IMG/VR virus record: IMGVR_UViG_3300025112_000010
Span: 1-64,000 of that record
Length of the DNA: 64,000 nt
DNA from: a virus
Reading direction: 5' to 3' (one strand)
Shown: positions 6,711 through 61,441 of the stretch, one piece after another
Numbering within the stretch: position 1 is the first letter of the stretch
Layout: each line of letters starts with the position of its first letter
Notes under the pieces: model-generated
Databases searched by the model: none
What the model saw: the letters and a program-made list of their open reading frames with translations, nothing else
What the model was told of the DNA's origin: nothing
Position numbers and translations under genes: made by a program

Positions 6711-6726
6711 CGCCTAATATTAGGCG
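6711..6726. promoter_or_regulatory. Perfect 16-bp palindrome CGCCTAATATTAGGCG (a member of the CTCCTA..TAGGAG family).
   Basis: Read directly; upstream of the start of gene 6235..6666. Confidence 0.5.
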
Positions 6727-7013
6727 ATAGGGTTTCAGCGGGTAGTTTGAAAAAACAGTTGGCGAGTATTGTACTTGCGATAAGCTTTGGCAGGCTGACC
6801 AGCCCTTGGGAGAACTGGCTCTTTACAGGGTAGTCGGGCTCGACGCCCGGTCCCAATCCGTTTGGACCTGCGAGGTTTCTCCCTCGCTCGTCAACTGTCT
6901 CTTGTGTGTGTGTGTGGTGGAGGTTGCAGGGTCTCCCCTTTGCACAACGTATACCCGAGCCCGCTTGAGTCTAGCTTCTGCTGGCAGCCAAGATACCGTC
7001 CCTCCTCTGATTC

Positions 7014-7319
7014 TTATCGGCAATTGAAGTGCTTCATCTGCACTAATTTCTCTCGCCAATCGGGTGTTTCATGGATCTTCGATACGACCAGATCTTTCAG
7101 CTCCTGGACGTCGAAGTCATGTTGGTAAACGTCGTTGCCATGGTAGTCCTGCACGAGGACTGAGCATACGTCGAACGAGTCGCAGAACTCCTGCCCGAAC
7201 TCGTCAACGTCTGGGTAGACGTCGAGGACTGCGGACTCGACCCAGAAGATCCTTTTGTCTTCGTGGAGCAACTCGATCTCCAGTTGGGTCAGAAGTTTGG
7301 TGTCGGCTTCAAGTGGCAT
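7014..7319 (-). CDS. Hypothetical acidic protein.
   Basis: ORF track trimmed to the ATG preceded by CCGGAGACCCCAAAG. Confidence 0.5.
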   Translation of the reverse strand: MPLEADTKLLTQLEIELLHEDKRIFWVESAVLDVYPDVDEFGQEFCDSFDVCSVLVQDYHGNDVYQHDFDVQELKDLVVSKIHETPDWREKLVQMKHFNCR

Positions 7320-7412
7320 CTTTGGGGTCTCCGGGGGTGGAAGTGTTTCAGGTCTGTGTAGCTTAGATAAGATTCCTGCCAGTGTCAAGTGGTCAGGGAA
7401 AGAATTTCTGAT

Positions 7413-7775
7413 TTAGCACTGATCTCTCAAGTGCGGGGGTAGAAAGGGGAGGAAGTCTTTGTAATGCAACACGTTGGGCGTCAGCTCGTCCAGGAGGGCG
7501 TTGTACTCCTGTCCGCATCTGTTGACGTTGTCAGCGTCGGCACGCTTTATATACAGCTCTCTCGTGGACGAGAGGGCATCCATCTTTTCTTTGACGACGG
7601 CGTTCCGTTCGTTGATCAGATCCTGCTGGTCGAGCAGGCCCTGGAAGGTTTCTTCCAAGGCATGCCTCGCAGCTTTATCCTCCTCGCTCTCCATCGTCAC
7701 GAGCCAAGCGGAGACTCCTATGCCTGCAACAAAGCCAACGAAGGTGAAGGTTGTTACGAGTAGGAAAGTGATCAA
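7413..7775 (-). CDS. Membrane-anchored coiled-coil protein.
   Basis: N-terminal TM helix; TTG start preceded by GAGGAGG. Confidence 0.5.
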   Translation of the reverse strand: MITFLLVTTFTFVGFVAGIGVSAWLVTMESEEDKAARHALEETFQGLLDQQDLINERNAVVKEKMDALSSTRELYIKRADADNVNRCGQEYNALLDELTPNVLHYKDFLPFLPPHLRDQC

Positions 7776-58352: not shown

Positions 58353-58898
58353 TTAAGGGGGCGTAACGCCAGTTTTGGATGCCTTGAGAAGTGCAGCGCC
58401 TATGCGTCTGACTACGTCATCAAAGAACTTATCGCTGTTAGCTCTCCATACAGGAAGTATTGAGGGGTGGGCCTTTGAGCCCTTTGTTTGAAGTACCATG
58501 ATAATGGCTAAGGCTTGACTAACTCCAGCGGACCCGCTCATCCCCATCTTCCGTCTGACATACTCTACAATTCGTGCGTAGTCCGGTTTGTGCGCGGGGG
58601 CTCCCTGTTCTAGATTTAGACCATAAGGTACGCCAAAGGCTCCTATGTCTACGAAGGGTCCACTGGTGTTATTAACTCCACCCTTGACTGTCATCCTTGA
58701 GTGGTAGTCGCCTGTGAAGATGGACTGGTTCTTTTTGATCCTCTTTCGGATTCTAGGAACCAAGACGTGCATCGCAGATGTGCGCAAGATCTTTGCCATA
58801 GTTTGAGGCATCTGGTAGGACATGCTTGCGATATAACGGGACCAGTGGGTTAATCCACTGTTCCATTTAACCTTTACCGAATATACACCTGTAGGCAT
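58353..58898 (-). CDS. Hypothetical head-tail joining protein.
   Basis: Position only. Confidence 0.45.
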   Translation of the reverse strand: MPTGVYSVKVKWNSGLTHWSRYIASMSYQMPQTMAKILRTSAMHVLVPRIRKRIKKNQSIFTGDYHSRMTVKGGVNNTSGPFVDIGAFGVPYGLNLEQGAPAHKPDYARIVEYVRRKMGMSGSAGVSQALAIIMVLQTKGSKAHPSILPVWRANSDKFFDDVVRRIGAALLKASKTGVTPP

Positions 58899-59551
58899 TA
58901 GACTAGCTCCATCACAAGAGTAGTGTGGTGCATGTGCCCCCGGTCATCTAACTGGTGGTGTAGCCAAATCACTTGGTAGGTCTGGGCAACTCCCGCCTGG
59001 GATGTGACAGAGTAGGAAGCTCCTACAACAGTAGCCCAAGGTTGTTTGAAAATATTCTGGTGCTTGGTGAATCCTGTAAACTCATAAGTCAAAGGGGCTG
59101 CTGCATCCTCAAATTTCCAGACCGACCCTGTCCAGTAGACTATGTAATCTCCTGCTATGGAGTCCTCATACCGATCACGAGTTTTGCTCCACGTCAAAGT
59201 CTGGGAACCTGCGGGCGTCCCTATGACAATAGTCGTAGGCATAAAGGCACCAAGCCCCGAAGGACCTGACATGTTGGGCGGGGTTCCCCATGGGACTGCA
59301 ACATGGTCGTTCAGCTCCACAGCCGGGGAGTAGACCATAGTCACCTTGCGAGCCTTGTCCATGTCGAACCCAGGCTTTTTCAACTCTTCATCGTGCTTGT
59401 CTACTGTAGAGATCCGGCACTTGCGAGATGCGTAGATCTCCAATGCGTTACCCATCGTTACCCCACCTCTTCCGTTATCTATACTCTGCAACCTCTCTAC
59501 GGATACCGTGTGGGGTAAACCAAAGAGGTTGATCCTGGAGTTTGCTGGCAT
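58898..59551 (-). CDS. Hypothetical structural protein.
   Basis: ORF track. Confidence 0.45.
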   Translation of the reverse strand: MPANSRINLFGLPHTVSVERLQSIDNGRGGVTMGNALEIYASRKCRISTVDKHDEELKKPGFDMDKARKVTMVYSPAVELNDHVAVPWGTPPNMSGPSGLGAFMPTTIVIGTPAGSQTLTWSKTRDRYEDSIAGDYIVYWTGSVWKFEDAAAPLTYEFTGFTKHQNIFKQPWATVVGASYSVTSQAGVAQTYQVIWLHHQLDDRGHMHHTTLVMELV

Positions 59552-60252
59552 TAGTCTTCTCTCCAGGGATTGTAGTCGGCAGGCGTCATGCCATCAGTGG
59601 CACCTAAGAACATATCAACGAAGTTTATGTATCGTGCCAAGAGCCGATCCAGTTCCAGGTAACCGGTTGAGAAGTCGGTCTCGTTTCCGGACCTCTTGTA
59701 CGTGACTGTGAAGTCAGGCCAGACAGCTTGGATCACATCGGGGGTAGCCATCCCACTGGAACCTGGAATAAGGTTCTCAAGGGTCCACAAGAGTGTGGCT
59801 CTCTTTATGGCTGCGGGGACCGTCGAACGTCCAAAGGAACCGACAACTTTGACGTTGCTTTTGCCTTTAGGGAATCGACTCGTTTTGGTCACGCGCCGCA
59901 GTGTGTCCGCTGTACGAAGCATATCCAGATAGTGTTCCTGGACTTTGAAGTCTTCGTCTTCTGTGTAGGTCGTTAAGACTGTCGTCCCATCGTCGTCCAA
60001 CTCCTCCACTGAGGTAATTGAAATGGCAGGGGCTACTATCTCAGGGGGAAAGAACAACCGATAATAGTCCCCACCATCGTAGACGACTGTCTTAGTTTGG
60101 GCGTAGAACCAATCGTTGGTAAAAAGTTCGATGAACTCCTCAACGATGGCTATCTCGGCTGTGATCTCCGCGTCGGAGAACGCCACAAGATCCACTACCT
60201 CACCTGCCACTTTGTGGGTACGAACTTCAGTATAGGTAGCGTAGTTGCCCAT
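59551..60252 (-). CDS. Putative head-tail connector or adaptor protein.
   Basis: N-terminus YATYTEVRTHKVAGE resembles gp6-like adaptor N-termini; weak. Confidence 0.4.
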   Translation of the reverse strand: MGNYATYTEVRTHKVAGEVVDLVAFSDAEITAEIAIVEEFIELFTNDWFYAQTKTVVYDGGDYYRLFFPPEIVAPAISITSVEELDDDGTTVLTTYTEDEDFKVQEHYLDMLRTADTLRRVTKTSRFPKGKSNVKVVGSFGRSTVPAAIKRATLLWTLENLIPGSSGMATPDVIQAVWPDFTVTYKRSGNETDFSTGYLELDRLLARYINFVDMFLGATDGMTPADYNPWRED

Positions 60253-60256
60253 TGGG

Positions 60257-61441
60257 TTACTCCATGAGGATCTCCCGAATCGCTCGGGTGACAGTAGATA
60301 TGTTTGCTACTACTTTGACATCTCTGGAGCCCACAATCAACCCGAATGTGGTTCCGGTTGTGGCATCCAGGACTATGTCGAAGTCGGCGGGATTAACGGT
60401 GGAGTCGAACTCGGAGCCTTCGGTAACGTCGTAGACCTCTCGGAGCTTACGAACGAACTCACACCGGTCTCCTAATAATAGGAGAGTTCTCTTCATAGAG
60501 ACGGGACCTACCTGCGTGGATCTAATATCGAACTGCGGATCAATCGACGGTATGAAGGGCTCTGCTGCCTCTAAGACTTGCTGGACTGTGATTGCCTTCA
60601 GTAGCATGTGGGACGTCTCACAGTCGTGTGCGAGGGCTCTGGTGGGTCTTCCTGCACCAAACCTATGGACTGGAACTAGAAGTGGGTATTCCCCTATAAC
60701 ATCAGCAGGCCAAGTGTTTGAAAATAAGACCAGCCCTGGAACACCTAAGACCCCTGCAAGGTGTGCAAACCCTGAGTCTGATCCCAGGAAGAGGCTGCAT
60801 CGGGCAAGGGTTGCCACCTGTTTGCTCATGTCCTCATCTACGTCAGATAGCTTCGTAATGCGGTCGTCGGAGAATCCGGGTTCATCCTTGGTTCCAAGCC
60901 AGACGACGTCACAGCCCGCTTCTCGGATCGCGTAAGCGACTTTCTTCCAGTTGTCGAAGTCCCAGACTCGATTGGGGTTGCTGGCAGTGGGGTGGATAGC
61001 CACCGTACAGTTGAGGCACTTCACCAAAGGCTTGAGTCTCTTGACCTCAAACTCCCCAGGACCATGGGAGATGCCTGCCCTCTCGGAGGCTCGCTCATAG
61101 TAGGAGCCTGCTCGGAGGCTTCGTCTCTCGTTGAAGACATGGCTGTATTCCACGAGGTGGTCAAACTTGTTTCGTATTTGGGGGGTGTTGAACTTCTGGG
61201 TTTCGATTGCGTGGGCTACACCCTTCATGCGGGTGATGAGCTTGGTCTGGTGCCCTTTAACAATCGCCGTCACCTCTGCACCCGCTTCAGCAAGCACAGG
61301 AGCGAGTCCTCCAATGGCTATTACAACGTCGCCTACTCCACCTGTAAGCTTGAGGGCAATCTTCTTACCCTTCATCTCAGCTAGGGGTGGTAAACCACTC
61401 AAAGGTTCGTCGGTTGAGTTGCTCATAGAAAAGCCTTCCAT
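60257..61441 (-). CDS. Glycosyltransferase family 9 (heptosyltransferase-like). The last ~78 codons may be a separate small ORF.
   Basis: KKIALKLTGGVGDVVIAIGGL N-terminal signature; GVPGLVLFSNTWP region. Confidence 0.6.
   Translation of the reverse strand: MEGFSMSNSTDEPLSGLPPLAEMKGKKIALKLTGGVGDVVIAIGGLAPVLAEAGAEVTAIVKGHQTKLITRMKGVAHAIETQKFNTPQIRNKFDHLVEYSHVFNERRSLRAGSYYERASERAGISHGPGEFEVKRLKPLVKCLNCTVAIHPTASNPNRVWDFDNWKKVAYAIREAGCDVVWLGTKDEPGFSDDRITKLSDVDEDMSKQVATLARCSLFLGSDSGFAHLAGVLGVPGLVLFSNTWPADVIGEYPLLVPVHRFGAGRPTRALAHDCETSHMLLKAITVQQVLEAAEPFIPSIDPQFDIRSTQVGPVSMKRTLLLLGDRCEFVRKLREVYDVTEGSEFDSTVNPADFDIVLDATTGTTFGLIVGSRDVKVVANISTVTRAIREILME
60469..60486. promoter_or_regulatory. TCTCCTAATAATAGGAGA palindromic motif, here inside the 3-prime part of the GT9 ORF.
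   Basis: Read directly. Confidence 0.4.

Follow-up and report, generated by a model that had tools for sequence, protein, structure and literature searches.

Dispersed 18-bp palindromes as candidate operators of a KorB-like DNA-binding protein in an uncultured siphovirus-like phage

The stretch of DNA analysed here (hereafter the window) comprises 64,000 nucleotides (nt), positions 1 to 64,000 of the IMG/VR virus record IMGVR_UViG_3300025112_000010. It is probably only a part of the genome, about 100 kb in length, of an uncultured siphovirus-like phage, and nearly every window gene is carried by the minus strand. An 18-bp palindrome recurs along the window, and we consider with moderate confidence that its copies serve as scattered operators for a KorB-like DNA-binding protein of the phage that regulates its own gene, the likeliest candidate being a protein of 303 amino acids (aa) encoded at 27427..28338 on the minus strand. 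A preliminary description of the sequence had offered several functions for the repeat, including a messenger RNA hairpin that sequesters the Shine-Dalgarno (SD) sequence, an operator for a dimeric regulator, a late-promoter element and an RNase processing site. The operator is the option favoured by the evidence, namely the dyad symmetry, a series of palindromes running through the related lineages and a match between the half-sites and a helix of the candidate protein, from which we infer binding.

The preliminary description had listed eight copies of the pattern CTCCTA-N3/4-TAGGAG. All eight are present, but in this exact form the pattern is found only at 28364 and 60469 (0.01 expected), and the repeat, while real and non-random, is looser and more numerous than eight strict copies. 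The core CCTA-N4-TAGG is shared by seven of the listed copies and by one at 51087, the 56978 copy having an imperfect inner arm; it occurs eight times against 0.69 expected, a number reached in 0 of 100 shuffled sequences. When up to three mismatches to the 16-mer consensus CTCCTAATAATAGGAG are allowed, 12 sites are obtained in the window (21 strand matches against 0.47 expected), and a scan with CTCCTAATATTAGGAG gives 12 sites against 0.17 expected in Markov random sequence. The sites beyond the listed eight lie at 1237, 19157, 42696 and 51085. Sixteen copies of one lineage, of which the window supplied 12 and a second contig set four, were aligned as they read on the coding (minus) strand and yield the 18-bp consensus T-C-K-C-C-T-A-W-T-R-W-T-A-G-G-M-G-A, the outer T...A included. 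CC/GG is present without exception in the 32 half-sites, and the central T-A/G is almost as constant. The two 7-bp half-sites, TCKCCTA, have their centres 11 bp apart, about one helical turn, and the central tetranucleotide is found in both orientations, ACAT and ATGT, on the coding strand. The sequence around the window copies is unrelated and the sharing is limited to 18 bp. The exact 18-mer is confined in IMG/VR to the window lineage and is, therefore, not a widespread motif.

Nine of the 12 sites are intergenic, though intergenic DNA constitutes 13.9% of the window (p = 3e-6). Enrichment ahead of starts is likewise evident at the scale of the window, with ten of the 12 sites lying 5-95 nt before a start codon (at 5, 44, 9, 78, 8, 25, 6/95, 33, 81 and 30 nt); the earlier placement of every copy 0-90 nt upstream of a start does not hold for the 60469 copy, which is 217 nt away and has no start within 110 nt. 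AGGAG had been said to double as the ribosome-binding site, in the form AGGAGA, at two copies; it stands at SD distance in three, at 10396, 21333 and 31342, the last before a tiny open reading frame (ORF). The SD lies within the hairpin for just three of the 12 window copies, the others having a separate SD 20-80 nt downstream or being intragenic. An intrinsic-terminator form, with a GC stem and a U run, is taken only by the 37152 copy, with an added GC clamp, and weakly by that at 56980, ten copies being without a T run. The palindrome is found in the early, middle and late modules as well as inside genes. The 28364 and 42696 copies are located downstream of consensus sigma-70-type promoters, while the sigma-70-type promoters of the early genes (TTGACG-17-TAGATT) form a distinct and far commoner repeat. 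Since an early-type sigma-70 promoter lies 29 nt upstream of the 28364 copy, the palindrome is unnecessary as a promoter there.

Along the window, the weak copy tCTCCTATTATGTGGCGa (coding strand) at 1236..1253 lies directly after a terminator-like hairpin, and a TTGACC hexamer begins 5 nt downstream. The copy tCGCCTAATATTAGGCGa at 6710..6727, correctly reported earlier as a perfect palindrome and carrying a G/C variant in both arms, precedes the ATG at 6666 by 44 nt and is kept in the related contig L018 (L018:12493), as is tCGCCTAATAATAGGAGa at 10395..10412 (L018:8987), the AGGAG of which lies 9 nt before the ATG of a 40-aa ORF. The degenerate copy tCTCCTAATATGCGGAGa at 19156..19173, 78 nt upstream of an SPFH/Band 7 start at 19078, is kept in L039:9308. 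The copy aGTCCTATTATTAGGAGa at 21332..21349 follows a terminator-like hairpin and has a GTG start 8 nt downstream, whereas tCTCCTAATGTTAGGAGa at 28363..28380 occupies the leader of the 303-aa gene, between its sigma-70-type promoter and the ribosome-binding site, its actual form being 8+8 and not the 10-bp stem once attributed to it. tCGCCTAATAATAGGAGa occurs again at 31341..31358, 1 nt past the stop of the RecA-like gene. As had been noticed, the copy tCTCCTATTATTAGGTGa at 37151..37168 is enclosed by a terminator hairpin ahead of the DNA polymerase gene; it sits at the apex of this GC-clamped, intrinsic-terminator-like structure with its following T run, predicted by RNA folding at 37130..37185 on the minus strand. 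The L002 counterpart of the stem before this polymerase (PolA) gene is a near-perfect extension of the palindrome, then TTTTTCTTTTC. The copy tCTCCTACTGTTAGGGGa at 51084..51101, within the 3' end of a 131-aa gene and 81 nt before the start of a 491-aa gene, is identical in L007 with diverged flanks, and tCTCCTCTTGTTAGGAGa at 56979..56996, terminator-like in a scan, lies between a stop codon, 7 nt before it, and the ATG at 56949, 30 nt after it. The intragenic copy tCTCCACATATTAGGAGa at 42695..42712 encodes LHILGE in the gene for a winged-helix protein, and the perfect copy tCTCCTATTATTAGGAGa at 60468..60485 encodes LLLLGD inside a 394-aa glycosyltransferase-9-like gene, which is truly coding, as substitutions by codon position against L007 number 30/18/83. 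Several copies follow terminator-like hairpins directly. A second short repeat, ACCCCTCCCCCTTTATTT, occurs immediately upstream of the 1237 and 19157 copies (1253-1290 and 19174-19200), with a related stretch in 24485-24583; at 1237 it forms the 5' arm of the terminator-like hairpin, and at 19157 the 3' arm is missing.

Comparison with contigs 90-96% DNA-identical to the window revealed 2 differences in 144 motif positions against 46 in 745 positions of the 50-nt flanks (p = 0.009). Gains and losses of sites accompany mosaic changes. Compared with window positions 21325-21349, L039:7022-7160 has a 35-aa ORF inserted exactly behind the motif, and in L002:15479-15760, as compared with 31247-31358, the motif and ribosome-binding site are joined to another ORF, while the relative 3300025133_000100 has two additional perfect copies within lineage-specific inserts. 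Such insertion or replacement exactly at the palindrome edge indicates that the motif marks mosaic junctions. At about 95% identity between relatives, the small ORFs at this edge differ by insertion or replacement, while the motif, ribosome-binding site and start codon are kept.

Eleven more distant lineages, the PolA proteins of which are 40-48% identical to that of the window, are syntenic with it. The window motif is absent from all eleven, and each has an enriched near-palindrome of its own, of 14-16 bp and of the form TGCAA..TTGCA, TCCAA..TTGGA or GTCCCCGGGGAC; these were missed by an exact 6-mer-arm palindrome scan and detected only by a near-palindrome clustering scan. The TCCAATCGATTGGA type was observed in L008 (4 sites against 0.07 expected), L015 (6 against 0.19) and L048 (16 against 0.08), the TGCAATCGATTGCA type in L010 (5 against 0.06), L014 (4 against 0.03) and L016 (3 against 0.13), TGCAAACGTTTGCA in L017 (3 against 0.03) and L049 (13 against 0.20, many perfect), TGCAAGCGCTTGCA in L050 (6 against 0.15) and L051 (5 against 0.15), and GTGTCCCCGGGGACAC in L009 (4 against 0.14). 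The window motif TCCTAATATTAGGA is a further member of this series. Between lineages the arms change symmetrically, both together. The relatives' half-sites TTGCA, TTGGA and GGGAC bear no resemblance to an SD, and 47 of the 69 relatives' sites, about two-thirds, lie inside genes.

Some site positions are conserved although the sequence is not. The 42696 copy shares its alignment columns and reading frame with L010:1080 (GTGCAATCAATTGCAG, VQSIAD) and L015:5052 (CTCCAATCGGTTGGAC, LQSVGP). A site is located 29-144 nt before PolA in six lineages, at a terminator-hairpin apex in three of them, the lineage's own palindrome being 29-72 nt away in L008, L016, L048 and L049 and 144 nt away in L015; the primase gene contains a site in six lineages. 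Homologues of the 303-aa gene have a site within about 150 nt before them in ten of the 12 lineages with a readable upstream region, and in three of them (the window, L008 and L015) this site is downstream of the promoter, in L014 8 nt upstream of the -35 element. The variable side of the promoter is the behaviour of an operator and not of an RNA element.

Pairing within the palindrome does not appear to be what is conserved. In a covariation test 84.8% of the cells were paired; the mean over the shuffles was 84.9%, and 333 of the 500 shuffled sets equalled or exceeded the observed value. The window-lineage copies, the arms of which vary independently, hold a single compensatory pair. Independent arms, a conserved arm sequence, two orientations of the centre and a flexible position relative to the promoter together point to a dimeric protein that reads double-stranded DNA and lend none to selection for an RNA hairpin.

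The 303-aa protein has a putative helix-turn-helix at about residues 94-122, as judged from its sequence and a structural model. Its gene is preceded by the sigma-70-type promoter TTGACG-17-TAGATT with TG at 28410..28438 on the minus strand, and its homologues in L008, L015 and L014 have an equivalent promoter ahead of them. A first homologue search returned the protein itself alone; a profile search gave eight relatives, and an AlphaFold model on nine sequences was confident for residues 40-190, with residues 1-32 disordered. The helical core in this model appears to resemble the DNA-binding domains of ParB, Spo0J and KorB, the fold match being moderate. Pfam gave no match for the window protein and a weak DUF3102 match for one family member, while a Foldseek comparison of the model with PDB and BFVD returned nothing significant or annotated. 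A homologue was not found within the 22 kb of L009.

The putative recognition helix of this protein follows the half-site class in 12 of 12 lineages. TGCAA half-sites are accompanied by a helix of the form x-R-K/Q....L-I/V/M-S/D/E (L010, L014, L049, L051, L053, L057 and L058), TCCAA half-sites by K-S-x-A-H-Y-L-K (L008, L015, L048, L055 and L056) and the TCCTA half-site of the window by S-T-K-A-N-L-L-A-Q. Five lineages (L053 and L055-L058) were added and checked after the rule had been stated, and all five obeyed it. The L010 protein is 47-48% identical to proteins of the TCCAA class and 37-44% identical to the others of its own TGCAA class; it is thus nearer to the TCCAA class overall, and simple shared ancestry is insufficient to account for the match between helix and half-site. 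The change from Arg to Ser or Thr in the helix would parallel that from G to C at half-site position 2.

Taken as an 18-bp double-stranded DNA operator, the palindrome would be read by a phage-encoded dimeric helix-turn-helix protein. The 303-aa protein would bind its own promoter or leader, giving autoregulation, and in addition a dozen or more sites across the early, replication and tail modules, where bound dimers might occlude promoters or block elongating host RNA polymerase at the heads of gene modules. Each lineage would have altered its half-sites and recognition helix together. The window half-site happens to read TAGGAG, so that some copies would double as SD sequences as a by-product and not a purpose; where AGGAG is a real SD, the hairpin may damp translation as a local consequence. 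More tentatively, a whole family of siphovirus-like phages with genomes of about 100 kb could possess a genome-wide regulon under a ParB/KorB-like protein consisting of the DNA-binding domain alone, the specificity of which would have been re-set repeatedly, the half-sites being TGCAA, TCCAA, TCCTA or GTCCCC and one helix position being occupied by Arg, Ser or Thr.

Several points weigh against assigning the palindromes to the 303-aa protein as operators. Domain scans of the window, made with Pfam on about 90 ORFs and with PHROGs on about 20 of these, revealed neither the ParB N-terminal CTPase (ParB/Srx) domain nor a ParA partner, and the association of helix with half-site was drawn from about 13 related lineages with no correction for phylogeny. 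The strong bias of the window sites towards positions before starts is not fully explained by an operator, most window sites are without a recognisable sigma-70-type promoter nearby, and L010 and L053 have no site before the homologue of the 303-aa gene. With the N-terminal domain and ParA absent and the fold match moderate, membership of the ParB family proper is not established.

Two other proteins were considered as binders. A 262-aa winged-helix protein is encoded at 42046..42834 on the minus strand, before the IstB/DnaC-like loader and DnaB-like helicase; its profile matches Crp/MarR/AspA winged helices in PDB and it is a probable replication initiator. It was ranked second, as its helix does not track the motif class (L048 combines a class-A-like helix with a class-B motif). 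Two near-consensus sigma-70-type promoters with the sequences TTGACA-18-TATACT with TG (11/12) and TTGACA-17-TATGCT (10/12), at 42601-42871 on the minus strand, flank the intragenic palindrome in its gene, a layout that recalls an origin embedded in an initiator gene; the lambda ori, for example, lies within gene O. A 67-aa CsrA homologue (Pfam CsrA, E = 1.2e-22) is encoded at L003:4260-4463 (the same stretch as L011; IMGVR_UViG_3300006923_000058), upstream of terminase genes and some 100 nt beyond a degenerate copy of the palindrome; the contig is probably part of the same phage genome. Phage-borne CsrA could act on GGA-containing leaders, but as a binder of an RNA form of the palindrome it is a mere lead, GGA being located in the stem and not the loop and the gene on another contig.

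The same type of DNA site might also serve a different function, as a loading or organising site for segregation, compaction, replication or packaging, or as a box of the winged-helix initiator marking the origin. The spacing of the sites, about every 2-5 kb with many intragenic, is like that of parS and Noc sites, the fold of the 303-aa protein is moderately like that of ParB/Spo0J, and the SopB centromere sites of phage-plasmid N15 are four inverted repeats of 16-18 bp that lie dispersed (PMC7205306). An initiator is further suggested by the site at conserved codons of the winged-helix gene, which precedes the IstB/DnaC-like loader and DnaB genes; in the window this site lies between two near-consensus promoters. 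Such functions nevertheless seem unlikely to us, since ParA, the ParB N-terminal domain, integrase and plasmid functions were not seen in the window, and a collection of 185,579 genomes of bacteria and archaea contained no detectable relative; the recognition helix of the winged-helix protein, moreover, is out of step with the motif class in L048. Replication origins normally have clustered iterons, and the palindromes are single and isolated. An RNA element, in which a 7-bp hairpin hides the SD-like AGGAG and sets translation, messenger stability or processing, is improbable. In its favour, the location of the genes on one strand means that every copy is transcribed, the copies are predicted to form hairpins with energies between -3 and -12 kcal/mol, a start follows AGGAG at a distance of 5-9 nt at 10396, at 21333, in the L002 orthologue of 31342, at L013:14039 and at L039:7022, the 37152 copy tops a terminator hairpin and a CsrA homologue is present on a contig probably of the same genome. 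The sequestering of the SD is, however, not supported as the general function, because pairing-preserving covariation is absent and it is the arm sequence itself, beyond its complementarity, that is conserved, the motifs of the relatives are not SD-like and mostly intragenic, most window copies have a separate SD downstream and the perfect 6711 copy lacks AGGAG altogether (GGCG). The L014 site, in addition, is upstream of its promoter, and no Rfam family matched. A stem of 7 bp is too short for RNase III.

A promoter element for a phage RNA polymerase or a phage sigma-like factor, by which transcription would restart after terminators at module boundaries, appears very improbable. The copies at 1237, 10396, 21333, L012:473 and L013:14039 do lie directly after terminator-like hairpins and before genes, the centre TAATAATA resembles a -10 element and TAATAATAGGAGA is loosely like the TATAGGGAGA of T7 promoters. 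The element is, however, symmetric with both orientations of its centre and present in all modules and inside genes, which also speaks against the late-promoter element proposed earlier; the window ORFs scanned with Pfam (about 90) and PHROGs (about 20) revealed neither an RNA polymerase nor a sigma factor, the genome beyond the window not having been fully examined, a transcript begun at or past the motif would be without an SD where the start is 6-9 nt away, the 28364 and 42696 copies are already downstream of sigma-70-type promoters, and the sites of the relatives are mostly intragenic. There is equally little to recommend a selfish or recombinational repeat with no regulatory role, whether like a repetitive extragenic palindrome (REP), like a miniature inverted-repeat transposable element (MITE) or as a hotspot of module exchange. 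Copies occur at mosaic junctions between close relatives, and two extra perfect copies lie in inserts of 3300025133_000100, but any short conserved regulatory sequence would be expected at junctions. The copies have only 18 bp in common, with unrelated flanks, and their positions are kept at about 45% protein identity while their sequence co-changes with the protein helix; no transposase or RAYT-type gene was seen in the window scans, no exhaustive search having been made outside the window.

The proposed operators are of a known kind, that of dispersed palindromic operators on a mobile genome, to which the present analysis adds a protein proposed as the binder and a series of switches in specificity across the family. 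In function, the closest analogue is KorB of the IncP plasmid RK2, which acts at dispersed OB operators (PMC11790492). As in KorB/OB and ParB/parS, where the palindromic sites measure 13-16 bp, a palindromic site is present here in several dispersed copies. Unlike in RK2, no ParB N-terminal CTP-binding domain, ParA/IncC partner or KorA-like co-repressor was detected, Pfam shows no detectable homology, the binder is a candidate and the replicon is probably a lytic phage. The phage-plasmid N15 has its SopB centromere sites IR1-4, palindromes of 16-18 bp (GTGCGACC..GGTCGCAC) that are scattered singly and bound by a ParB-family protein (PMC7205306); its set of four sites, full SopA/SopB partition system and plasmid prophage state were not found here.

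Among phages, the nearest analogue is provided by the 17-bp palindromes TGTTCGG-N3-CCGAACA of the Cluster O mycobacteriophages, present in more than 30 copies on a siphovirus genome of about 70 kb (PMC4351075). These, too, have 7-bp arms in inverted orientation around a short spacer. About a third are intragenic and many intergenic, their centre is not oriented with respect to transcription and the function was reported as unknown (PMC4351075). The sequence and host are unrelated to those of the window phage, the spacer here is 4 bp (or none, as 8+8), and a candidate binder and lineage variants are documented here, whereas no binder was proposed there. The start-associated sequences (SAS) found in mycobacteriophages of Cluster K and in Microbacterium phages of Cluster EF include an AGGAG repeat at the ribosome-binding site, 3-8 bp before many starts, and the inverted repeats of the extended form (ESAS) were judged likelier to be protein sites than hairpins, as departures in the arms do not preserve pairing (PMC3203893; PMC7302621). 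The embedded AGGAG is shared with the present motif, but SAS are asymmetric, in a single orientation and nearly always at the ribosome-binding site; the motif here is a palindrome, about a quarter of its copies supply the SD and the versions in the relatives are not SD-like. The stoperators of Cluster A mycobacteriophages are described as 13-bp repressor sites placed genome-wide in many copies, often in short intergenic gaps, that block elongating polymerase, the motif and repressor co-evolving between lineages (PMC9283540; PMC6550527). The logic of dispersed operators and the co-evolution of site and protein are common to both, but the stoperators are asymmetric, oriented with transcription, bound by monomers and found in temperate phages, whereas the window has a symmetric site and showed no lysogeny genes.

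A genome of about 100 kb is probable for the window phage, because relatives of its PolA are encoded on contigs of up to 100-118 kb and a separate contig with an identical 18-mer, which has no DNA overlap with the window, carries a GpA-type terminase. Among the PolA homologues the identity drops from 98% to 48% or less. A megablast search of INPHARED with 12 kb was without a match and hence yielded no similar annotated phage, and a protein search with PolA for known phage relatives gave matches all at or below 28% identity. A prophage scan of 185,579 bacterial and archaeal genomes yielded 0 relatives, which argues against a plasmid-prophage lifestyle. The domain scans gave no helix-turn-helix, sigma, RNA polymerase, ParA, integrase or transposase domains in the window, integrase, repressor, lysogeny and plasmid functions were not seen among the ORFs scanned, and Rfam and tRNA searches gave no match. 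The replicon is probably a lytic phage.

The window encodes DNA methyltransferases (4631-5476 and 34391-35137), an exonuclease (17292-18479), RusA (28443-28904), a RecA-like protein (31359-32438), an SF2 helicase (32772-34100), the family A DNA polymerase PolA (35277-37118), a primase (38174-39175), the DnaB-like helicase (40211-41473) and the IstB/DnaC-like loader (41442-42143), together with glycosyltransferases (44794-46536 and 60257-61441), a tape-measure protein (51398-55417) and a tail tube-like protein (57266-57745). A MoxR-type AAA protein (24584-26116) has a vWA partner (21398-23923); this pair of a MoxR/CbbQ-type AAA+ ATPase and an 841-aa protein (21398-26116) is kept in all relatives examined, the 841-aa protein having a long Gly/Gln/Glu-rich low-complexity middle and a C-terminal vWA-like MIDAS motif (DESGSMG). 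A 754-aa DnaB-like helicase at L051:5985-8249 gives a faint LAGLIDADG match that suggests an intein. In the structural region, a 611-aa ORF (62150-63985) contains internal DNA repeats of about 300-450 bp with 70-82% identity (62354-63476), which are the probable reason for breaks in related assemblies there. The 388 nt directly downstream of the 303-aa gene (27039-27426) contain no convincing ORF and no Rfam match, and their fold is no more stable than that of shuffled sequences (z = -0.54).

Intergenic gaps of the minus strand between 2089 and 16190 contain about 14 copies of a cassette of about 100 bp, in which a stretch rich in A/T is followed by TTGACG-17-TAGATT/TAAGAT, a conserved leader and GGGAGACCAAGAC-ATG. 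The gaps include 2089-2190, 2814-2903, 9323-9478, 10827-10942, 11610-11715, 13137-13244, 13977-14080, 14288-14392, 14843-14944, 15428-15533, 15759-15862 and 16109-16693, and the first 20 kb (1-20 kb) contain 20 promoter-like sites where 8 would be expected. The cassettes thus supply each small early gene with a near-identical private sigma-70-type promoter and ribosome-binding site, and they coincide with the break-points of gene-content differences from a close relative.

If the palindromes are operators of the 303-aa protein, a conspicuous repeat would be explained and an uncharacterised protein conserved across a family of uncultured large phages would acquire a role, with a predicted regulon that takes in the DNA polymerase gene, the replication-initiator region, the tail-module heads and the gene of the protein itself. 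The comparison also carries a caution, as an apparent SD trap in one genome became a DNA site with an accidental SD likeness once the relatives were compared. The series of helices and half-sites over 13 lineages would constitute a natural set for the study of specificity change in ParB/KorB-type proteins, from which orthogonal pairs of operator and repressor may be obtained. Lineages of these apparently lytic phages would then possess regulatory identities akin to immunity groups, with a specificity code that is legible from sequence.

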